Source: an uncultured archaeon (lineage in GTDB: Archaea; Iainarchaeota; Iainarchaeia; Iainarchaeales; CSSED10-239). From it: DNA of 29,450 nt. The stretch covers positions 1 to 29,450 of the forward strand of contig CAZPGO010000026.1 of the NCBI GenBank assembly GCA_964586355.1, written 5' to 3'. Shown piece by piece: positions 1-29,267 of the stretch (the first letter of the stretch is position 1; every line of letters begins with the position of its first letter). The notes under the pieces were generated by a model. That model made no database searches, was not told the origin of the DNA, and saw only the letters and a list, made by a program, of their open reading frames with translations. The translations under genes were made by a program, and so were the position numbers.

Positions 1-419
1 AAAAAATTTCCTTTTGCTAAAGAAAGGTTATTTTGTTTAAACATATCTTCAAAATAATCTATATCATAAGAAGTAAAAGTAGTCATCACCACCTCATTAG
101 AAAACTTAGTTTCTAAATATCCTGTTAATGATCCACTTACAAACGAAATATCACTTACTTTTTTAATAGTTTTAATATCATCATCTGTAAGCCCAGTACT
201 AGTTCTTGTGCCACCAAAAGAAACATATTTTGAGGTGATTGTTATTTTATAAGCTCCAAGATTACTAAACTCCCTATCTATAGACTCTTTTAGACCTTCT
301 GACAAAGAAATTAAAGAAACAATAGCAAAAACACCTACAATAATTCCTGCAATAGTTAGCCAATTTCTTAATTTTCTTCTTCTAAGATTCCTTAGAACAA
401 AGGGCAATATATTAAACAT
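1..419 (-). CDS. ABC transporter permease, MacB/FtsX type (N-terminal part; gene runs off the window)
   Basis: The minus-strand frame is open from the ATG at 419 to the window edge. My translation is MFNILPFVLRNLRRRKLRNWLTIAGIIVGVFAIVSLISLSEGLKESIDREF... This shows a basic N-terminus, a first TM helix and the start of an extracytoplasmic domain, as in MacB/FtsX permeases. It starts 2 nt after the stop of the upstream ABC ATPase gene. Confidence 0.7.
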   Translation of the reverse strand, partial: MFNILPFVLRNLRRRKLRNWLTIAGIIVGVFAIVSLISLSEGLKESIDREFSNLGAYKITITSKYVSFGGTRTSTGLTDDDIKTIKKVSDISFVSGSLTGYLETKFSNEVVMTTFTSYDIDYFEDMFKQNNLSLAKGNF

Positions 420-3009: not shown

Positions 3010-3963
3010 ATGAAAAAAACAATAATTATTTTAGGAATTTTAATATTATCTTTGTTCTCTTTATCAGCTCAAGAAGAAATATTAAATAATGAAACTATAA
3101 ATATTAAAGTATCCTCTCCAATTTCCTTAAGTCTAAATAAAGACTTTAATGTTACTCCTGACACCATAATTGTAAGAAAAGAAAATGATCTTCAAATTAT
3201 TGCTGGTCAAACAATTATTTCAAAATATGAATATGAAAATAAACTAGATTATGCTGTGGTTATAAAACAAGAACTTAACCTTAATATTGAAACAAATAAC
3301 AATAGTATAGCAACATATTTGGCTCAGGAGTTAGAAACAGAAGAATGTTTAGAAAAAAATGGTTCTTTATTAAAATATAATGATCAAAGAATAACAGTTT
3401 TTAATAAAAAAGAACAAAAACACTTGTGTTTTTTAGAAAAGAAAAACGATTTTTATTTTTTTGAGGGTAAATTAGTTTTGGAGTTAGAAATCAACCCAGG
3501 AAAAACAACTAAATATCTTTTAATAGTAACCACTCCACAATTAGCTTTTGATCTTAATGATAACACCTTAGTTTTTGAAGATCAGATCTCTATAGACTCT
3601 AAACAAAATCAAAGACTATTTGATGCAAATTATCAAGGAGTTGGTCTTGAAGAATTTGGTCCAATTACTACTAGTGATGAAAATAACTCTCTTTTAGGTA
3701 ATCTTAGAGACATCTACAATAATCAAGCAAGAAGAAATCTTAATAATAATTATTCAAAGACAGATACTGAGATAAATACTGCTCTAAATAAATCACAAAC
3801 AGAACCTGCTGGAAATACTTTAAAAAATAAAATGAGTGGTCTTGTTACTTTTAGTGCTTCCAAAAACACCAAATTTATTATTATTTTGATTTTATTAGTT
3901 TTGGTTGGTTATATATATTATAAAAGAAAGAAAAAGAATAATTTTTTAAAACAACGATTATAA
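3010..3963 (+). CDS. Hypothetical secreted / C-terminally membrane-anchored surface protein
   Basis: It has an N-terminal signal-like segment MKKTIIILGILILSLFSLSAQ and a C-terminal hydrophobic helix FIIILILLVLVGYIYY followed by KRKKKNN. No recognisable catalytic motif is present. Confidence 0.6.
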   Translation: MKKTIIILGILILSLFSLSAQEEILNNETINIKVSSPISLSLNKDFNVTPDTIIVRKENDLQIIAGQTIISKYEYENKLDYAVVIKQELNLNIETNNNSIATYLAQELETEECLEKNGSLLKYNDQRITVFNKKEQKHLCFLEKKNDFYFFEGKLVLELEINPGKTTKYLLIVTTPQLAFDLNDNTLVFEDQISIDSKQNQRLFDANYQGVGLEEFGPITTSDENNSLLGNLRDIYNNQARRNLNNNYSKTDTEINTALNKSQTEPAGNTLKNKMSGLVTFSASKNTKFIIILILLVLVGYIYYKRKKKNNFLKQRL

Positions 3964-7516: not shown

Positions 7517-9001
7517 TTATTTTATTAATATTTTCTTAATCTCTAAAAAACCAGTAAACTCATTTTCCATAATCTTTTTAGATTCTAGAATTTTTATAGA
7601 TCTTTTAAACATAGGAGAATCAATAACAACAGTCTCATATTCTCCACCCTCTCCAGCAATATTAAAACCATATTTTTTGTTTAGTTTTTTAAAATCTATA
7701 AGATCTTCTTTAGAAACAACTTTTCCAAGATACTCTTGATCTAACCCTAATGCTGCAATTTTACAGATCATAAACTTAAAATTATTATTTAATAATAGCT
7801 CAATTTCCTTTTCTTGATCCATTTGCCACAAAGGAGCAATCAATTCTACTTGTAATTTGTTACAGATAGTTAAAACCCTTTCTCTTTGATAATTACTAAA
7901 AAGAGCACCACAGACTATTCCTGTTATTTTATATTTATTAATAGTTTTTTTTATTAGTAGTTCTAGATCATCTAACTCCTCTTCCTTTACAGAATTAGAG
8001 TTTTTTGTAAGTAGCGGTAGATTCAAACACTCCGCTTGAGCATTTAATAAATTCAGCTCAGGTTTTTGATACATATATGAGTCATTAGAACTAGGGATAA
8101 TAGATAACAAACAGGAAAAATTATATTTATTTTTTACTAAAAACATAGAAAGATTACTATCCTTACCACCAGAAAAAAGAACACCAACATTTTTTTTTAA
8201 AAAAGAGTTTAAATACTCTGTTTTTGTTTTAAATTTATTTTCTTTAGCTAACTTTTCAATAACCCTATCAGAATTACTACCATATTGACAAGCAACTTTT
8301 TTTCTTTCACTAATTTCTGAACAGAGACCAAGATCTTTACCAATCTCTCTTATTATTATTTTATTTTGTGTTTTAGAAAGCAAATATTTTGAATCAATAG
8401 TTAAAGAATAATTTATTAGATCTTTATCTAAATATGGACAAACAATAGAAAGATTAAAAAAACTAGCAATAGCTTGATCTCTATCTAAGTTGTCCTTTTG
8501 AAGATTTTCTAAGCATTTTTTTGTTTCTTCTTTAATATCTTTACTTAATCTAAACTTGTGATAACCAGCAAACAACTCATCACTTCCAAGACCAGAAAAA
8601 AGAACATCTGTATTTTTGCTTTTTGCTTTTTTTGCACAAAGATATACTGGTATTGCAACCCCCATATTTATGGGGTTTGTGGAGTTAGTAACATCTATTA
8701 TATCTTTAATAATTACAGGTAATTCTTTTTTCTCACAAGAAATAATATTTAGATTTAAATTTAGATCCTTTGCTAGCTTTTTTGCAAAATAAAGATCTTT
8801 TGGGTCGTTTATATCTTTTACATATGCAAAAAAACAATCAAATTTTATTTTGTTTTTCTTAAGAATAATTGCTAACAAAGCAGAATCAACACCACCACTT
8901 AGTAACAAACCATATTTTTTAGATCTATTTTCTGTTAATTTCAGTATAGATCTTTCTAATAAATTTAACAATTCTTCTTTTGATTTATTCATTGACACCA
9001 T
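7517..9001 (-). CDS. Fusion of two PP-loop ATP-pyrophosphatase domains: asparagine-synthetase-like adenylating domain (no glutaminase domain) + Dph6/MJ0570-like diphthine-ammonia-ligase domain
   Basis: The N-terminal half has LLLSGGVDSALLA and SGLGSDELFAGY, which are AsnB C-domain motifs. The C-terminal half has VLFSGGKDSN and AGEGGEYETVV, which are MJ0570/Dph6-type motifs. The start is ambiguous: GTG at 9010 (overlapping the U32 stop as GTGA), ATG at 9001 or ATG at 8992. Confidence 0.8.
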   Translation of the reverse strand: MVSMNKSKEELLNLLERSILKLTENRSKKYGLLLSGGVDSALLAIILKKNKIKFDCFFAYVKDINDPKDLYFAKKLAKDLNLNLNIISCEKKELPVIIKDIIDVTNSTNPINMGVAIPVYLCAKKAKSKNTDVLFSGLGSDELFAGYHKFRLSKDIKEETKKCLENLQKDNLDRDQAIASFFNLSIVCPYLDKDLINYSLTIDSKYLLSKTQNKIIIREIGKDLGLCSEISERKKVACQYGSNSDRVIEKLAKENKFKTKTEYLNSFLKKNVGVLFSGGKDSNLSMFLVKNKYNFSCLLSIIPSSNDSYMYQKPELNLLNAQAECLNLPLLTKNSNSVKEEELDDLELLIKKTINKYKITGIVCGALFSNYQRERVLTICNKLQVELIAPLWQMDQEKEIELLLNNNFKFMICKIAALGLDQEYLGKVVSKEDLIDFKKLNKKYGFNIAGEGGEYETVVIDSPMFKRSIKILESKKIMENEFTGFLEIKKILIK

Positions 9002-9006
9002 AAAAA

Positions 9007-10203
9007 TCACTTAAATAAATAAACCTCATCATTTCTTCTTACCCTTTTTTTTACCTTAATTGCAATAAGATCTCCTTTTTTTGCAATTTTTGTAAAATTA
9101 TTTTTAGATAATTGCATCTCTTTTATATTTTCTTCTAAAACACCAGTAGTTGGACCGATAATTAAAATATCATCATTAATTTTTAGAGATCTAGCTTCAA
9201 TCTTAATCTCTGCAACAGAAATTTTTCTAAAATAGTTTGTGATTTTTCCAATTCTTGTTTTTGTTTTGGTTGCTTTTGACCCTCTAGTGTCCGTCCACTC
9301 ATTTATTGGTCTACCTAAATAAAAGCCATCACTAAAATCTCTATTATAAACTGTTTTTAATTTTTCCATAAGCTCTTCTTTTTTTTTAGAAGATAGTTTT
9401 TTTTTAAAATACAGATCAATAGCGTCTCTATAAACAGATGTTACAACCTTTACATACTCTGGGGACTTTCCTCTACCTTCAATCTTTAAAGCAGAAACAT
9501 TAAGAGCTAAAATCTTTTCTAAAAAAGGTAAGGTACAAAGATCTTTTGGACTTAGTATGAAATTATTGTGTATCTCTAATTGTTTATTTGTCTCTATATC
9601 AGTTGCAATATACTCTCTTCTACAAGGCTGAATACATTTCCCTCTATTAGCTGAGTGACCATATAAAAAATGAGACATAAAACATCTTCCACTAATAGCA
9701 ACACACATAGCTCCATGAATAAATATTTCTATATCTGCCTTTGTATTTCTAATTATTTTCTTAATCTGATCTAGAGAACATTCTCTTGCAAGAACAAATC
9801 TTTTAATACCAAGTTTTTTATATTCATTAATTGATAAAGAATTACTCACACTTGCCTGAGTACTTAGATGTACCTCAAGCTTTTGCTCTCTTGCTAGTTT
9901 TATTACTCCAAGATCCCAAGAAATAATTGCATCAATTTTTGCTTTTTTTGCAGAAATTAATGTTTTCTTTATCTTGTTTATTTCATCATCAAAACATATA
10001 GTATTTAATGTTAAATATACTTTAACTTTTGAATCATGAGCAATTTTTGTGATCCTATTTAGATCTCTTAGAGTAAAATTTCTTGCAGATTCTCTCATGT
10101 TTAAGCCCTTAACACCCAAATAAACAGCATCTGCACCCCCATCAATAGCTGCTATTAACATCTCAAAGTTTGCAACTGGTGCTAGTAATATTGGTTTTTT
10201 CAT
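9007..10203 (-). CDS. Peptidase U32 family protein (Fe-S, RlhA/TrhP/UbiU-like hydroxylase family)
   Basis: The N-terminus is U32-like (LLAPVANFEMLIAAIDGGADAVYLG, TIM-barrel type). It carries the family's four-Cys cluster CVAISGRC-x15-C-IQP-C, i.e. Cx6Cx15Cx3C. Confidence 0.9.
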   Translation of the reverse strand: MKKPILLAPVANFEMLIAAIDGGADAVYLGVKGLNMRESARNFTLRDLNRITKIAHDSKVKVYLTLNTICFDDEINKIKKTLISAKKAKIDAIISWDLGVIKLAREQKLEVHLSTQASVSNSLSINEYKKLGIKRFVLARECSLDQIKKIIRNTKADIEIFIHGAMCVAISGRCFMSHFLYGHSANRGKCIQPCRREYIATDIETNKQLEIHNNFILSPKDLCTLPFLEKILALNVSALKIEGRGKSPEYVKVVTSVYRDAIDLYFKKKLSSKKKEELMEKLKTVYNRDFSDGFYLGRPINEWTDTRGSKATKTKTRIGKITNYFRKISVAEIKIEARSLKINDDILIIGPTTGVLEENIKEMQLSKNNFTKIAKKGDLIAIKVKKRVRRNDEVYLFK

Positions 10204-10221
10204 AAAAGATCTTTTTTTATT
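10183..10221. repeat. Left copy of a perfect 39-bp direct repeat (tagtaatattggttttttcataaaagatctttttttatt)
   Basis: This is identical to 11516-11554 by direct comparison. It covers the first 7 codons of the U32 gene (ATG at 10203, minus strand) plus 18 nt upstream. Confidence 0.95.
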
Positions 10222-10226
10222 AAAAT

Positions 10227-11366
10227 TTATTTAGATAATAATATGTTCTGTATTTCTTTTGCCAAAAACAAACCATCGGTTGTTTTTGTTAATATATTTA
10301 GATCAACTAATTTATTAATTACTCTTTTAGAAGTATTATAATTTTTTGTGTTAAGTATATCTTTACCTTTACTAACAGTAATATATGGATTAGAAAACAA
10401 GCTATCAAAAATAATTAATAATTTTACACTAACATTATTATCTTTTAAATAAGCTCTTGTAATTGATCTATATTCTAGTAATTTGGTAATCTTTTTAATT
10501 GTTTTTTTAGATTGATCAATAACGCCATCTAAAAAATATTCTATCCAATTATTTATTTTACTATTAGAAGATGCATTTAATAAATACTGGTAATAATTTT
10601 CTTTTTCTTTTTCAAAATATTCACTTAAATAAAGAATTGGTTTTTCTAATAAATTACACTTACATAAATACAAAATAATAAGTAATCTACCAACCCTCCC
10701 ATTCCCATCAACAAAAGGGTGTATTGATTCAAATTGATAATGTAGTATTGCAGATTTTATTAAAAAAGGAGTATCATCATCAGTGTTAAGATAGGTTAAA
10801 AAATTATTCATAAGTTCTAATAAATTTTCAGGATTTGGAGGATTATATATAGATGTTTCCAAATCACTATTTGAATAGCCAATCCAATTTTGAACAATTC
10901 TTAATTTGCCAGAATCTTTTGAAAATCCTCTAACATCTAATAATAATATTTTATTTAATCTTAATATTAATTCAAGAGAAATTTTTTCACTCTTAATTTT
11001 TTCTAGTCCTTCATTTAATGCATTTATGTAATTTAAAACCTCTTTTAGATCTTCTGTTGGGTTTTTATTAATTAAATCAGCTCTTAAAACATCAGATAAT
11101 GAAGATCGTGTACCCTCTATTTTAGAACTTAAAACAGCTTCATTTTTTAAATATGGTTTTAAAATTAAATCAGCATTAGGTAAAGTTTTTATTAAACCAG
11201 ATAATTTACCTAAATTATTATTAGATTGTTCAATTTTTTTAATTAATGTGTTGGTATAATTAATAGATATAGGTAACTTGTTTGGTATAAAAACAACATA
11301 TTTTTTATTATCTCTATTTATTGAAATTATTTTACCATTTGGCTTCTTAAAGTTTTTTGTGTCCAC
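10227..11366 (-). CDS. fic: Fic family protein (AMPylase-type), class II with N-terminal inhibitory helix and C-terminal wHTH-like region
   Basis: The Fic active-site motif is HPFVDGNGRVGRLL (HPFxDGNGRxxR). The inhibitory-helix motif SxxxEG appears as SSKIEGT upstream of the core. The ~90-aa C-terminal tail is typical of Fic proteins with a winged-helix domain. The start is GTG at 11366, and there is no in-frame ATG near the N-terminus. Confidence 0.9.
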   Translation of the reverse strand: MDTKNFKKPNGKIISINRDNKKYVVFIPNKLPISINYTNTLIKKIEQSNNNLGKLSGLIKTLPNADLILKPYLKNEAVLSSKIEGTRSSLSDVLRADLINKNPTEDLKEVLNYINALNEGLEKIKSEKISLELILRLNKILLLDVRGFSKDSGKLRIVQNWIGYSNSDLETSIYNPPNPENLLELMNNFLTYLNTDDDTPFLIKSAILHYQFESIHPFVDGNGRVGRLLIILYLCKCNLLEKPILYLSEYFEKEKENYYQYLLNASSNSKINNWIEYFLDGVIDQSKKTIKKITKLLEYRSITRAYLKDNNVSVKLLIIFDSLFSNPYITVSKGKDILNTKNYNTSKRVINKLVDLNILTKTTDGLFLAKEIQNILLSK

Positions 11367-11410
11367 AAATATTTAATGATTAAACTTGTATTTAAATATA
11401 TCATTTAATA

Positions 11411-11436
11411 GTGCCAAAAATGGTTGTTTTTGGCAC
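11411..11436. promoter_or_regulatory. Perfect 10-bp inverted repeat gtgccaaaaa-N6-tttttggcac upstream of fic (operator or RNA hairpin)
   Basis: Read directly from the sequence: 11411-11420 is the reverse complement of 11427-11436. It lies 45-70 nt upstream of the fic start, inside the inserted segment. Confidence 0.5.
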
Positions 11437-11451
11437 AGTTGTTAAAATTAG

Positions 11452-11465
11452 TGCCAATTTTGGCA
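11452..11465. promoter_or_regulatory. Second TGCCAA/TTGGCA inverted repeat (tgccaa-tt-ttggca)
   Basis: It uses the same half-site as the 11411-11436 palindrome but with a 2-nt spacer, and lies 15 nt further upstream. Confidence 0.4.
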
Positions 11466-11500
11466 ATGATATTTGTTATTTAAAAATTTTATGATTTGCC

Positions 11501-11536
11501 CTATATTAATCTTAATAGTAATATTGGTTTTTTCAT
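11501..11536 (-). pseudogene. Duplicated 5' fragment of the U32 gene (MKKPILL + LRLI*), remnant at the right cassette boundary
   Basis: The ATG at 11536 (minus strand) and the next 6 codons are identical to the true U32 start, because they lie in the 39-bp repeat. The frame then stops after 11 codons. Confidence 0.6.
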
Positions 11537-11554
11537 AAAAGATCTTTTTTTATT
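11516..11554. repeat. Right copy of the perfect 39-bp direct repeat
   Basis: Identical to 10183-10221. Confidence 0.95.
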
Positions 11555-11605
11555 TAAATATATTATATAAATATTAATACAAAACAAATAAAAAAGAAAA
11601 CAATT

Positions 11606-12379
11606 ATGCAAAAAATAAAAGAATTTTATAATATACACCAATATCCTAAAAGTAATCAATATACTTCTAATCAAAAAAGAACAAATAAAAAAATAATCAC
11701 AAAAATACTTAGATCAGCAAATTTAACAGAAAAAGATCTTTATAATAAAAGAATATTGGATGTTGGGTGCGGGACTGGGGAAAAATCCATCTATTTTTCA
11801 AAAAATGGGGCAAAAGAAGTTGTTAGTGTTGATTTTTCTTTAGGACAGTTAAATGAAATTAAAAAAAGAATAAAGAAAGAGAATCTTAAAAATATTATAA
11901 TAAAAGAAAAAGATATTATTAAAGATAACTTAGAAGATCTAAAAAAATTTGATCTGATCTTTTGTCTAGGTGTATTACACCACACAGAAGATCCTTATTT
12001 AGGATTTAAAAAAATCGCCTCTTTATTAAAAAAAGAGGGAATTATAGTAATTGGACTATACCACAAATACTCCAGAATTAGATATAAAATACAAAGAATA
12101 TTACTAAGAACCTTTGTAAGCAAAGATCCAAAAAAGATCATAAAATTTTTATTAACCTCAAAACTTACAAAAAAATTTAGAAAAGCACCTCTCTCTACTC
12201 TTTATGATAGGTATGCTGTGCCTTATGAATCTTATCATACCCTAAGAGAAGTAAAAAAATGGTTTAAAAAAAACAATATAAAAATAATTAATTACAAAAA
12301 TATAAAATACAAAATAGAGATATTTAACCTTTTTGAGAAAAAAAGCATATTTTTTGTAGGAGGTGAAAGGTTTATATAG
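11606..12379 (+). CDS. Class I SAM-dependent methyltransferase
   Basis: SAM motif I is ILDVGCGTGEKS, the acidic post-I residue is in VVSVDFS, and motif IV-like is DLIFCLGVLHHTEDP. The substrate is unknown. Confidence 0.85.
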   Translation: MQKIKEFYNIHQYPKSNQYTSNQKRTNKKIITKILRSANLTEKDLYNKRILDVGCGTGEKSIYFSKNGAKEVVSVDFSLGQLNEIKKRIKKENLKNIIIKEKDIIKDNLEDLKKFDLIFCLGVLHHTEDPYLGFKKIASLLKKEGIIVIGLYHKYSRIRYKIQRILLRTFVSKDPKKIIKFLLTSKLTKKFRKAPLSTLYDRYAVPYESYHTLREVKKWFKKNNIKIINYKNIKYKIEIFNLFEKKSIFFVGGERFI

Positions 12380-20082: not shown

Positions 20083-20580
20083 ATGGAAATAGTAATTAGT
20101 GATTCTTCAACTTTAATCTTATTAACAAAAGCAAAATTAATAGATTTAACATTAAAATATTTTGATATAGTTATTCCAACGATTGTTTATGAAGAAATCG
20201 AGAGAGGCAAATCACAAAATATAGAAGATGCATTTGAAATCGAAGAATTAGTTAATTCAAGAAAAATAAAAATAAAGAACCCAAAAGACAAGCATTTAAT
20301 AGATATGTTAACTAAAAAATTTAGTTTAGATGTAGGGGAATTACATGCAATAGCATTAGCTAAAGAAGAAAACAGAAGCATATTTATTGATGATAAGAAG
20401 GGACTGTGTGCGTGCAAATTGTTAAATATAAACACATACACTGCAATTAGATTATTAAATACATTTTATCTTACAAAATTATTAACAAAAGAGGAATTAA
20501 AAGAAAAATTAGAAATATTAAGAATTAAAGGCAGATATACAATTGATGATTTAAAAGAAACAGAATTTTTAACAAGGTGA
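20083..20580 (+). CDS. PIN-like nuclease domain protein (DUF3368/COG2405-like), putative type II toxin
   Basis: The N-terminus is IVISDSSTLILLTKAKLIDL, followed by IPTIVYEEI, then GELHAIALAKE and IFIDDKKG. This reproduces the acidic-residue pattern and order of DUF3368-type PIN proteins. Confidence 0.7.
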   Translation: MEIVISDSSTLILLTKAKLIDLTLKYFDIVIPTIVYEEIERGKSQNIEDAFEIEELVNSRKIKIKNPKDKHLIDMLTKKFSLDVGELHAIALAKEENRSIFIDDKKGLCACKLLNINTYTAIRLLNTFYLTKLLTKEELKEKLEILRIKGRYTIDDLKETEFLTR

Positions 20581-20586
20581 TTAATT

Positions 20587-20970
20587 TTGGAAAAGAAAAA
20601 AAATATAAGTTTGAGATTAAGTAAAGAGATTGTTGATAAGGTGAATTTGCTTTCAAAACTAGAAACATTAGATAAATCTATTATATTAAGAAGAGCAATA
20701 GAGTTAGGATTAAAAGAAATATCTACTGAAGTTGCAATTAAAGGTTTTGGAGAAGATAAATTGTCTTATTCAGAAGGAGCAAAACTATCAGACATGTATG
20801 TTGGTGAGTTTATGGAACTATTATCTCAAAGAGGAGTTCAAATTAAGCCATATTCTTATGGAATTAAACAACATTTAGATAAATCAGAGAAACATTTATT
20901 AAAAATATTGTCTGATCAAATAAATAAAAATAAAAATAAATACAATGTTAAAAAAAAAAAAGAGAAATAA
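20587..20970 (+). CDS. Putative antitoxin: ribbon-helix-helix N-terminus fused to a UPF0175-like domain, Lys-rich tail
   Basis: ISLRLSKEIVDKVNLLSKLETLDKSIILRRAIELGL is an RHH pattern (beta strand plus two helices). KLSYSEGAKLSDMYVGEFMELLSQRGVQI resembles the UPF0175 core (iSlgkAAelaGms..eF.ell...gi). Only a TTG start at 20587 is available, preceded by aaggtga. Confidence 0.6.
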   Translation: MEKKKNISLRLSKEIVDKVNLLSKLETLDKSIILRRAIELGLKEISTEVAIKGFGEDKLSYSEGAKLSDMYVGEFMELLSQRGVQIKPYSYGIKQHLDKSEKHLLKILSDQINKNKNKYNVKKKKEK

Positions 20971-27041: not shown

Positions 27042-29267
27042 ATGAGAAAAAAAGAAACTAAAATAATAACAACATTTACAGAAATAAAAAAAGAACCTGA
27101 TGTAATTGATGGAAACATCTATTCTCCCGAAATTAGTTTAATACCAGAAACTAAAGAAAATGTTACTGCAAATAAAAAAATTGCAGAAAAAAAGCCAGTA
27201 ACTAAAAAGAAAGCCCCAGCAAAAAAAAAAACAACTAAAAAAACTGCAGAAAAAGAAGAGAACAAAACAAAAAAAAAGGTAAAAAAACCAGCAACTAAAA
27301 AAAACGCACCAGCAAAAAAAGAAGAAAATAAAACAAAGAAAAAAGTAAAAAAACCGATTACTAAAAAAAAAGCAACTACAAAGAAAAAAATAAAAATTCC
27401 AAAAGATGCAAAAAAAATTAAAAAGAAAATAGAAGAATATTCTAAACAAAATATTTTAGATCTATTAAAAAAACAAGAAAAAACACCTAATTATTATATT
27501 ATTTCTCCAGTAGATCTAAAACTATTAAACAAATATAAAATAGATACAAAAAAATATTTATCTAGACTAAAAAAAGCAAAAACAAAATACTCTGTTCTAA
27601 AAAGATTAGGATATGATATTAAAGATCTACATAACTACAAAATATCAGAACTAAAAAATATTCAGACACCTTTAGAGGCAATACTTTCTTTTAATTTTAC
27701 AGCAGATAAACTTTTAAAAAACGGAATTAATAAAAAATATTTAAGTAAAAAAAAGATATCCTTAAGAAGTTTAAAACTTAAAAAATTCCCAGCCAAATTA
27801 CTTTATACCCTAGGATATAGTATAAAAGATCTAAAAAGAGTTGGATTCTCTTTACTAGAGATCAGCAAAATCAACTACAAACTACAAGAACTAAAACTAG
27901 CAGGATATAAACCAAAGGATCTTAAAAAAATGGGAATAAGTATAAATAATATAATCTCATTAAACTATTCAGTAGCAGATCTTAAAAAAATAGGCGTTAG
28001 TGCAAGAATACTAAAAGAAAAAAACTACTCTTTAAAAAAACTTAAAAAACACTATTCAGTAAAAGAACTTCTTGCAGCAGGATTTACAACGAAACAACTA
28101 ATCTTAGAAGGCTTTGATCTACAAGAAATGAAAACAGAAGATGTTGTTGTAAAAAATGTAAAAGAACTAATAGCCTCAAAAATAACAATAAAAGAACTTC
28201 TGGAATCAGGATTTACATTAAAAGAACTTCTAGAAAATGATATTAGCTTAGAAGAATGCCATAAAGAAAAAATAAATGCAAAAGATCTTTTTAATCTTGG
28301 TGTTACTTTACAAAAACTTAGAGAAGCAGGATATACTGTAGAAGAATTAATAGATATTGCAAAAACAGATATAAAAAATGCAGATTTAGAAAGATTAAAC
28401 TTAGAAGAACTAAAGTTTTTAAAATACACTGTAAAAGATCTACTTGCTTTAGGATATACAGTAAGAGAGCTTTATATCTCTGGATATTCAGCAAAAGAAC
28501 TATATGAGTCAGGAATTAGTTTTAAAGAACTTTTAGAAAGTGGATGCTCAAGCTTTGAAGTAAGAGAACTTGGATGTGATATTAAGGACTTCATACTATA
28601 TGGATTTGATCTTTCTAAACTAAAACAATCAGGATTTAGTGCATTAGAGCTTAATTTAGCAGGGTATAGCCTATTTGACCTTAAACAAGCTGGGTTTAGC
28701 CCCAGGGCTTTATTAAATATTGGATATACCGCAAAACAATTTAGATCTGTTGGGTATAGTGGACAAGAACTTTATCTTGCTGGCTTTGATTTAAGTGCTT
28801 TAAAGTTTGCAGGATATAGACCTAAAGAACTAAGAGGATTAGGATTAGAAATTTGCGAATTCAAAAATGCAGGATACCTAGCAAAAGAAATGAGAGTATC
28901 AGGTTTTAGTGCTAAAGAACTAGCACCAACCTATAGCTGTAAAGAACTTAAAAAAGCAGGATTTGATGCAAGTTCATTAAAGGATGCTGGCTTTAGTGCT
29001 AGTGACCTGCATGAGATTGGATTTACTCATAGAGAACTACACTTAGCTGGTTTTAATGCAAAAGAAGTTAGTCAACTAGGATATAGTATAAGACAACTAA
29101 GACTAATAAGATACTCTGCAAAAGAACTAAGAGTTTTAGGATACTCCGCAAAAGAACTAAGAAACGGCGGATTTACTTTAGATCAACTTAGAGCAGCTGG
29201 ATATAATCAAAAAGAACTAGAAGATGCTGGTTATGATGTTGATAAAATAAAACTTCTACCAGACTAG
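27042..29267 (+). CDS. Lys-rich (H1-like) N-terminus + ~50 tandem decapeptide repeats (xG[YF][ST]x[KR][ED]Lxx); function unknown
   Basis: The 741-aa ORF has no signal peptide or TM. Residues ~44-130 are KKPxTKKK-type. From residue ~185 to the end there is a 10-residue periodicity, for example LGYTVRELYI SGYSAKELYE SGISFKELLE ... LGYSAKELRN GGFTLDQLRA AGYNQKELED. Confidence 0.85.
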   Translation: MRKKETKIITTFTEIKKEPDVIDGNIYSPEISLIPETKENVTANKKIAEKKPVTKKKAPAKKKTTKKTAEKEENKTKKKVKKPATKKNAPAKKEENKTKKKVKKPITKKKATTKKKIKIPKDAKKIKKKIEEYSKQNILDLLKKQEKTPNYYIISPVDLKLLNKYKIDTKKYLSRLKKAKTKYSVLKRLGYDIKDLHNYKISELKNIQTPLEAILSFNFTADKLLKNGINKKYLSKKKISLRSLKLKKFPAKLLYTLGYSIKDLKRVGFSLLEISKINYKLQELKLAGYKPKDLKKMGISINNIISLNYSVADLKKIGVSARILKEKNYSLKKLKKHYSVKELLAAGFTTKQLILEGFDLQEMKTEDVVVKNVKELIASKITIKELLESGFTLKELLENDISLEECHKEKINAKDLFNLGVTLQKLREAGYTVEELIDIAKTDIKNADLERLNLEELKFLKYTVKDLLALGYTVRELYISGYSAKELYESGISFKELLESGCSSFEVRELGCDIKDFILYGFDLSKLKQSGFSALELNLAGYSLFDLKQAGFSPRALLNIGYTAKQFRSVGYSGQELYLAGFDLSALKFAGYRPKELRGLGLEICEFKNAGYLAKEMRVSGFSAKELAPTYSCKELKKAGFDASSLKDAGFSASDLHEIGFTHRELHLAGFNAKEVSQLGYSIRQLRLIRYSAKELRVLGYSAKELRNGGFTLDQLRAAGYNQKELEDAGYDVDKIKLLPD
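27255..27386 (+). repeat. Imperfect 66-bp tandem duplication encoding EENKTKKKVKKP(A/I)TKK... twice
   Basis: 27255-27320 and 27321-27386 align with roughly four-fifths identity by eye. They encode two 22-aa Lys-rich units. Confidence 0.7.

Follow-up and report, generated by a model that had tools for sequence, protein, structure and literature searches.

How can a single gene enter the first codons of an essential-looking operon, with no recombinase of its own, and leave that operon undamaged? The question is raised by a fic gene in contig CAZPGO010000026.1 from an uncultured archaeon, of which 29,450 nucleotides (nt) were analysed; the whole of this stretch is called the window. The gene is bracketed by two identical 39-bp direct repeats, one of which contains the start of the neighbouring U32-family gene. 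The named homologues of the U32 product belong to Woesearchaeota and Nanoarchaeota, the GC content of the window is 26%, and assignment of the host to the DPANN archaea (Woesearchaeota/Nanoarchaeota type) is well supported. The genomes of DPANN archaea are tiny, the mobile elements recognised in them are few, and their defences are poorly known. The locus provides a recent gain of a SoFic-type gene, of a predicted defence or toxin kind, that is resolved to the base pair and for which the states before and after are both available. It indicates that one gene with its promoter can be placed inside the first codons of such an operon, and that the transcription of the operon may be rewired in the process.

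Structure of the insertion

A self-comparison of the window showed that positions 10183-10221 and 11516-11554 are identical at 39 of 39 bases. These are the only two copies of the 39-mer in the window when up to 3 mismatches are allowed (shuffle expectation 0). The runner-up exact repeat is 26 nt long, and first-order Markov simulations gave a mean of 17 nt and a maximum of 21 nt. The left, U32-proximal copy (10183-10221, minus strand) holds codons 1-7 of the U32 gene together with 18 nt upstream, and it is continuous with the intact gene, in the manner of an attR site. This gene (9007-10203, minus strand; TrhP/UbiU-like) was the target of the insertion. The right, methyltransferase-proximal copy (11516-11554, minus strand) is attL-like and runs into the ancestral intergenic region (11555-11605) that separated the U32 gene from a divergent gene for an S-adenosylmethionine (SAM)-dependent methyltransferase (11606-12379, plus strand). 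The duplicated U32 ATG in this copy opens a dead 11-codon stub on the minus strand (MKKPILLLRLI and a stop codon, 11536-11501).

The two copies are separated by 1,294 bp, in which no open reading frame (ORF) of at least 42 aa and no gene fragment was found besides fic. The fic stop codon lies 23 nt from the U32 ATG. A first-pass annotation of the window had reported a perfect repeat longer than chance allows, the functional U32 start in its left copy, a dead frame in its right copy, fic as the sole content between them, and a U32 operon beginning 23 nt downstream of fic; each of these points was borne out. On both sides the insert stops where the fic unit stops, its borders being placed about 14 nt beyond the outermost operator-like sequence at one end and 5-15 nt past the stop codon at the other, and the insert is therefore exactly one transcription unit.

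The repeat extends imperfectly for a further 10 bases, of which 8 are identical (10222-10231, minus strand, compared with 11555-11564), for a total of 47/49. The left-hand 10 nt hold the fic stop codon (10227-10229). Agreement at 8 of 10 positions is expected by chance with a probability of 0.003-0.006, as estimated from random pairs of 10-mers drawn from the window or the intergenic region. Such rarity implies a true similarity of about 49 nt with both mismatches clustered at one end. On the side of the gene body the identity ends abruptly, and the imperfect extension is found only on the side of the gene terminus.

Empty sites in related genomes

An empty site, free of fic, was identified in six related contigs, whose U32 proteins are 92% (L005), 89% (L006), 88% (L186 and L187), and 78% (L188 and L189) identical to that of the window. 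In all six, the methyltransferase gene is divergent from U32 and directly abuts it across a gap of 63-73 nt, and the longer contigs retain the gene order CorA-TM-methyltransferase-U32-PP-loop-LeuRS. The reconstructed empty site of the window lineage joins window positions 11555-11660 to 10221-10100. With the insert and one repeat copy removed, the window aligned end to end with the six relatives, and positions 11555-11605 aligned with the whole of their intergenic region. The sequence homologous to the repeat is present in a single copy in every relative. The end-to-end alignment shows that the 39-mer is chromosomal target sequence over its whole length. The single-gene insertion proposed in the first-pass annotation is thus a true insertion, and the empty site that it had called for, one homologous copy with the U32 gene abutting the methyltransferase gene, exists.

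Relative to all six relatives, the window carries a 6-nt deletion and a change from ATT to ATG, and both copies of the repeat have this derived state (10183-10203 and 11516-11536; the ancestral form is at L005:3019-3050 and at the equivalent positions in L006 and L186-L189). The U32 start has been shifted three codons downstream in the window lineage, giving a protein of 398 aa compared with 401 aa in the six relatives. Since the derived state is found in both copies, the duplication arose within the window lineage, after its split from the six relatives. By these alignments the insertion is recent, and fic appears to have been gained in the window lineage and not lost elsewhere.

The identical arrangement was found in contigs of four JGI samples and in one Logan unitig. 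Contigs L001 and L002, from two other samples, span both junctions, so that the assembly artefact considered in the first-pass annotation does not apply. All six contigs that encode an identical U32 protein have fic alongside, and the sampled population is fixed for the insertion. A comparison of the window with L001 across 20 kb gave 8 differing sites, with a hypervariable end tract excluded, and the repeats are identical throughout. Four of the 8 differences fall in fic, at 10559 and at three adjacent bases, 10752-10754; the latter change one codon from S to I, and the 99% protein variants P0002 and P0003 share the differences. The excluded tract (window 28-348) differs at 56 positions from the otherwise near-identical sister contigs L001 and L003; it sits in a MacB_PCD/FtsX-like permease gene and is a hypervariable or recombined segment.

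The fic gene and its upstream region

The inserted gene (10227-11366, minus strand, GTG start) encodes a 379-aa SoFic-type class-2 Fic AMPylase composed of Fic_N, Fic, and a C-terminal DNA-binding region. A SoFic-type protein was expected to have Fic_N and Fic in a single polypeptide of about 360-390 aa, and Pfam placed both domains in the one product (2.5e-23 and 3.8e-21, respectively). The GTG lines up with the ATG of the homologues, and the ORF is complete at both ends in comparison with 23 homologues. The catalytic motif HPFVDGNGRVGR (HPFxDGNGRxxR) agrees with the pattern HxFx(D/E)GNGRxxR, and residues H216, P217, F218, D220-R224, and R227 are invariant in an alignment of 24 homologues. 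The inhibitory N-terminal motif SSKIEG fits (S/T)xxxE(G/N), with E84 and G85 invariant in the alignment; class-2 Fic proteins are defined by such a motif (PMC12249575). The PADLOC SoFic model matched residues 22-376 (E = 2.2e-102), and the top PDB matches are SoFic structures. The score against the NCBIfam SoFic equivalog was 176 bits, under the cut-off of 550 bits, which makes the protein a distant member of SoFic. The GC and GC3 fractions of fic (0.221 and 0.108) are the lowest at the locus, the neighbouring genes having 0.24-0.29 and 0.16-0.19. The protein is most likely an autoregulated enzyme of toxin type or of abortive-infection defence.

A TATA-like box, TTTAAATA, at 11389-11396 (minus strand) lies 23-30 nt upstream of the GTG and is a candidate fic promoter, from which a leaderless mRNA may be made. 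Farther upstream are a perfect palindrome, GTGCCAAAAA-N6-TTTTTGGCAC, at 11411-11436 (0 expected by chance) and a second palindrome, TGCCAATTTTGGCA, at 11452-11465, which is conserved as ATTGCCAAAATTGGCA in the orthologous loci L086 and L090. Both of these TGCCAAAA/TTTTGGCA palindromes are putative fic operators. The outer 50 nt of the insert (11466-11515, minus strand) possibly hold a degenerate third operator, GGGCAAATCATAAAATTTTT, at about 11481-11502, a weak resemblance noted by eye in comparison with L086 and L090. Both of these loci share the order palindrome, TATA box, start codon, and both have three-operator regions. An equivalent layout was found with the fic orthologues (57-68% identity), some of which have other half-sites (TGTCAAAA, GTTATCAAAAA, TTCCAAAAT).

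Each orthologue has two or three palindromic operator-like sites (NNNCAAAA...TTTTGNNN) upstream of its TATA box. The operator regions are located at window 11411-11465, L086:900-1010, L090:421-548 and 1748-1875, L175:2790-2900, L183:1940-2005 and 3245-3305, L179:3270-3330, and L190:2958-3077. The outer operator bases vary by lineage (TGCC, TGTC, GTTATC, TTCC, GTATC), a pattern that looks like co-evolving repressor-operator specificity. The layout as a whole would fit autoregulation by the C-terminal DNA-binding domain of Fic. Downstream of fic, L090 and L183 have a repeat of the operator region; the 128-nt (L090) and approximately 60-nt (L183) flanking repeats were rejected as att sites, being these repeated operator regions.

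Orthologues and bacterial loci with the same architecture

The fic orthologues were found in six other contig sets from related, apparently DPANN, genomes, where they occupy five different neighbourhoods: with GlmS and a CCA-adding enzyme, with a second and shorter Fic gene, between SfsA and a HAD hydrolase, beside an AAA ATPase, and beside a TnpB gene. The TnpB gene (L190:4377-5525; OrfB_IS605/Cas12f-like) is convergent with a 64%-identical fic orthologue and 108 nt from it. In several related genomes the SoFic-like gene has a shorter Fic-domain-only gene (312-327 aa) next to it or nearby (L090:2021-3004, L091:1624-2607, L179:4713-5666, L180:1905-2858, and L175:5859-6797), and the one in L090 is preceded by a copy of the fic operator region. 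The plasmid records with a SoFic-like gene number 856, and a few temperate phages also carry one. This occurrence and the varied neighbourhoods of the orthologues identify the fic family as mobile cargo. A scan of a genome collection with the Fic alignment gave, among the matches listed, only distant bacterial homologues (at most 43% identity) and no close archaeal relatives.

Exact direct repeats tightly flanking fic were screened for in 95 loci, about 80 of them the bacterial ones from among the matches listed; the counts that follow have the same scope. Flanking repeats of 27-34 nt were present in 6 of the 95 loci. In four of these, fic alone is clearly bracketed in the att manner, and the repeats are spaced 1.5-1.7 kb apart. 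In a Gallionellaceae locus (L096, 3708-5404) the 3' end of tRNA-Phe is duplicated, with an exact core of 33 nt; in Synergistaceae (L147, 3732-5385) the first approximately 36 codons, at the 5' end of a MatE gene, are involved (core 32 nt); in Anaerolineales (L110, 3711-5485) the 3' end of a FemAB-family gene (core 29 nt); and in Giesbergeria (L152, 1730-3552) the 3' end of NnrS, with a core of 34 nt and approximately 160 nt more at about 87% identity. Two loci, L171 and L116, were rejected as bracketed cases because their repeats resemble tandem regulatory regions or enclose an extra gene.

In all four bracketed loci the exact core lies beside the gene body and the imperfect extension points toward the gene terminus, which is the polarity seen in the window, and no integrase was found in the flanks examined. 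The L147 locus has the same design as the window, comprising a dead 5' stub, fic in the same orientation, and an intact gene. With the geometry defined strictly, brackets surround 4 of 62 fic genes compared with 0 of 110 control frames at the same loci (Fisher p = 0.016). The first-pass annotation had described the cassette as unusual; this needs qualifying, since its architecture recurs around bacterial SoFic-like genes. The bacterial parallels suggest that defence systems of one gene, without a recombinase of their own, may spread by a general route that has been overlooked.

Search for mobility genes

Among the sizeable ORFs of the 29-kb window, Pfam matched none to an integrase or transposase, in agreement with the first-pass annotation. 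No tRNA gene and no Rfam family was found in the window, and no inverted repeat pairs the ends of the insert above the AT-rich background. The viral contigs that were searched contained no close relative of fic and no 34-nt core of the 39-mer. In the data searched, near-identical fic genes (99-100%) were found at the U32 locus only and the 39-mer in contigs of the same locus only, which removes the concern, raised in the same annotation, that the 39-mer might be a dispersed repeat. As for the features of attL/attR sites, identical repeats derived from the target and an empty site were found, and a nearby integrase was not.

Several element classes were considered and rejected. A transposon or insertion sequence (IS) would not account for an insert without terminal inverted repeats, a transposase, or a second copy or the same ends elsewhere. 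An integron cassette does not fit an insert that ends 5-15 nt after the stop codon, has a repeat consisting of target sequence, and carries its own TATA box and operators. A Xer/dif-type site was rejected because the sole palindrome in the 39-mer, AAAAGATCTTTT, is spacer-less (by eye), and an SSV-type split integrase because there is no space for integrase fragments beside the repeats.

Mechanism of insertion

The identical core, the abrupt end of identity on the gene-body side, the one-sided extension, the rebuilt gene, and the empty site together favour reciprocal recombination with a molecule that bore the target end. We give about an even chance to an att-type, Campbell-like integration of a minimal fic unit, carried out by a recombinase acting in trans or by host homologous recombination. 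Under this scheme, a DPANN archaeon would have acquired a self-contained fic unit, made up of the gene for a 379-aa SoFic-type Fic, its TATA box, and its two or three palindromic operators, on a donor molecule that already bore a copy of the U32 5' region, at least 39 bp and probably about 49 bp long. This donor, circular or homologous, would have recombined reciprocally with the chromosome in a Campbell-type event, with the crossover within the 39-bp identity. The event would leave the original promoter and the dead 11-codon U32 stub on the methyltransferase side (attL-like) and a reconstituted intact U32 start after the fic stop codon (attR-like). Because the cassette encodes no recombinase, catalysis would have to be placed in trans, with an integrase elsewhere, a helper element, or host homologous recombination on short homology as candidates. 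After integration, Fic would be autoregulated, and U32 and the PP-loop gene would be transcribed downstream of fic.

The first-pass annotation had interpreted the repeats as attL and attR left by a circular unit of about 1.33 kb. The attL/attR part of this proposal is the best fit to the one-sided extension and the four bacterial parallels; movement as a circle is possible. The Logan unitig L085 has 1,354 nt with a 21-nt terminal overlap, corresponding to 1,294 + 30 + 30 nt, a length that is compatible with a circle but is also the one that results from the breaking of a k=31 assembly graph at a 39-nt repeat, and it is therefore no evidence of a circular form. The junction predicted for a circle is ...TCTAAATAAATTTT + 39-mer + TTAAGATTAATATAG...

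A number of observations weigh against integration of this kind. No donor, attP, or circular form was found in the data searched; Pfam identified no integrase or transposase in the approximately 21 kb of the 48-kb sister contig that were analysed; and a flanking duplication of host sequence was present in none of the six ortholog contig sets inspected. The duplicated sequence is, from the alignments, fast-evolving, lineage-specific, and chromosomal. A match of 39/39 to an attP would therefore require a donor of the same or a very close lineage. Moreover, 39 bp is short for efficient homologous recombination, and the 8/10 extension could be microhomology used in end joining.

The main rival is duplication of the target at the time of insertion, an explanation that we regard as possible and on balance rather unlikely. 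A staggered break, with nicks 39 nt apart, would have been made in the U32 start, a linear fic fragment would have been captured, and fill-in would have duplicated the overhang; microhomology-mediated end joining, a replicative template switch, or an unknown transposase in trans could have effected the capture. A repeat that is wholly chromosomal and in the lineage-specific derived state, with 39 nt perfectly identical, would be produced directly and would need no matching donor, the similarity of 8/10 between the insert end and the target could be junction microhomology, and no recombinase lies nearby. Long duplications are not impossible, as the repeats of IS1634 illustrate. To our knowledge, however, the target duplications of archaeal IS elements and casposons reach about 15 bp, well below 39 bp, and the explanation has no known enzyme to call on that produces 39 bp. 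The insert lacks terminal inverted repeats and a transposase and has no second copy in the data. A fresh duplication would also be perfect throughout, for which reason the imperfect extension, one-sided and with the polarity of the bacterial att-type cases, favours the att reading. Finally, the insertion of a 239-aa gene after U32 in L186 and L187 is not accompanied by a duplication, and long duplications are therefore no general repair habit of these genomes.

It is doubtful that the cassette is the relic of a larger provirus, plasmid, or island that entered at the U32 start, whose integrase decayed and from which all but fic, kept by selection or by its addictive nature, was deleted, with attL and attR left behind. 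Such a relic would resemble the cis-mobilizable elements (CIMEs), which are defined as decayed integrative and conjugative elements (ICEs) or integrative and mobilizable elements (IMEs) of bacteria and retain attL/attR while the integration and transfer genes are missing (PMC5704250). The att-like repeats without integration genes correspond to that definition, SoFic-like genes occur in prophages and on plasmids, and a toxin-like Fic could resist loss, SoFic being toxic in Escherichia coli (PMC12249575). However, no other gene remnant is present in the insert, which continues for only about 50 nt beyond the operators and 5-15 nt past the stop codon, and two deletions would be needed whose ends fell very nearly on the limits of that unit. 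The four bacterial units are equally tight, and random decay is unlikely to have repeated this outcome.

An ancestral fic with its repeats, lost in the relatives by recombination between the repeats, is highly improbable. Direct repeats do promote deletion, and all of the empty genomes belong to different species (U32 identity 78-92%), but the relatives should then have kept the same 39-mer, whereas all six have the extra 6 nt and ATT, and several independent losses would be needed. A chimeric join at the short repeat during assembly or binning, suggested by the breaks of L003 and L004 inside fic and of Logan at the repeat, can be dismissed almost entirely, since L001 and L002 carry the same sequence across both junctions, a single read is longer than the 39-mer, L003 and L004 are broken at places other than the repeat, and the Logan break is expected at k=31.

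We consider it unlikely, though worth stating, that the att-type integration proposed here belongs to a wider class, in which SoFic-type fic genes would be widespread minimal mobile cassettes of bacteria and archaea. Each cassette would lack a recombinase, would consist of one autoregulated gene of toxin or defence kind and a short copy of a host gene end, and would be spread among related genomes by host homologous recombination or borrowed integrases. If this were so, insertion at a gene terminus would rebuild the host gene and place it under the transcription of the cassette, and the window would be the youngest, cleanest, and first archaeal example. In the boldest version, the operator-binding Fic protein would itself take part in the movement.

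Transcription of the target operon

The minus strand carries the sequence TTTATATA at 11564-11571, which precedes the duplicated ATG by 28-35 nt and probably served as a promoter element of U32. With the insert in place, the gene begins 1.33 kb downstream of its ancestral promoter region. A TATA-like sequence, TAAATAAA, to which the fic 3' end and the imperfect extension both contribute, lies 23-30 nt upstream of the working U32 start, and only short T runs lie between fic and U32. As fic and U32 have the same orientation, the ancestral promoter can read through the stub and fic into U32. The statement in the first-pass annotation that the operon had been cut off from its promoter is overstated in view of this read-through and of the TATA-like sequence near the U32 start. 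From the gene arrangement, co-transcription of U32 with fic is plausible, and dependence of U32 on the fic promoter is possible.

Other genes of the locus and the window

The downstream member of the operon (7517-9010, minus strand) encodes a fusion of a PP-loop (Asn_synthase-type) domain and Dph6, and it overlaps the U32 stop codon. Its Dph6 domain is of the archaeal type (diphthine-ammonia ligase) and scored above the cut-off. The U32 protein scored 219 bits, below the cut-off, against the tRNA U34 hydroxylase TrhP, and the methyltransferase has weak CmoB/CmoM-like matches. Positions 7517-12379 of the window look like an RNA- or protein-modification cluster, as far as these matches go.

Lineage-specific genes were found directly after U32 in three of the relatives (L186:6191-6910 and L187:2043-2762, 239 aa; L188:3116-4018, 300 aa). 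They are on the opposite strand, overlap the 3' end of U32 by 12-16 nt, and have no Pfam match on record; in L186 and L187 the 239-aa gene splits U32 from the PP-loop gene. No flanking duplication was detected at the insertions in L186 and L187. The target locus seems prone to insertions.

A likely toxin-antitoxin pair, consisting of a DUF3368 (PIN-like) gene and a UPF0175/RHH gene behind it, occupies window 20083-20970; a DUF3368 gene is also located near fic in L190. At 27042-29267, a 741-aa protein is encoded that has a lysine- and alanine-rich repeat region with a 33-nt period (27171-27402) and nine Decapeptide-repeat stretches (Pfam PF25296, E = 1e-127).

Comparison with known systems

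Integrative elements that carry replacement gene ends include phage 21 and e14 at icd, P4-type islands at tRNA genes, and the SSV- and pNOB8-type elements of archaea. These elements encode their own tyrosine integrase, and in the SSV type the integrase gene is split on integration. The window shares with them an exact core with an imperfect extension toward the gene terminus, a rebuilt gene, and a single-copy empty site. It differs in having no integrase or integrase fragment and in having as its target a 5' end that takes in the start codon. The direct repeats generated by IS1634 of Mycoplasma mycoides vary in length from tens to hundreds of bp. The window resembles it in having a long direct duplication of the target in an AT-rich reduced genome; unlike IS1634, the insert is single-copy, has neither a transposase nor inverted-repeat ends, and carries an ordinary gene as cargo.

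The protein itself is comparable to SoFic of Shewanella oneidensis (3EQX, 3ZCN) and Sofic of E. coli (PMC12249575), with which it shares the domain order Fic_N, Fic, and C-terminal DNA-binding region, the catalytic HPFxDGNGRxxR, the inhibitory N-terminal SxxxEG, and the state of a single gene borne as accessory or mobile cargo. It differs in being only about 35-39% identical to the bacterial members among the matches listed and in having a DPANN archaeon as host, where its defence role is predicted. Because the gap between fic and U32 is only 23 nt, there is also no space for a downstream small antitoxin gene of the AS1 type (PMC12249575).

With CIMEs the islet has in common the retention of attL/attR-type repeats without a recombinase and the intact target gene. 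CIMEs usually hold several genes or remnants, whereas the window has one intact gene and no element remnants, and the islet is archaeal and placed at the 5' end of a protein-coding gene. The kind of structure, an att-flanked islet without a recombinase, is known. What is new is that it consists of one gene without remnants, that a 5' end is the target, that the host is an archaeon, and that unrelated SoFic genes recur in the same arrangement.

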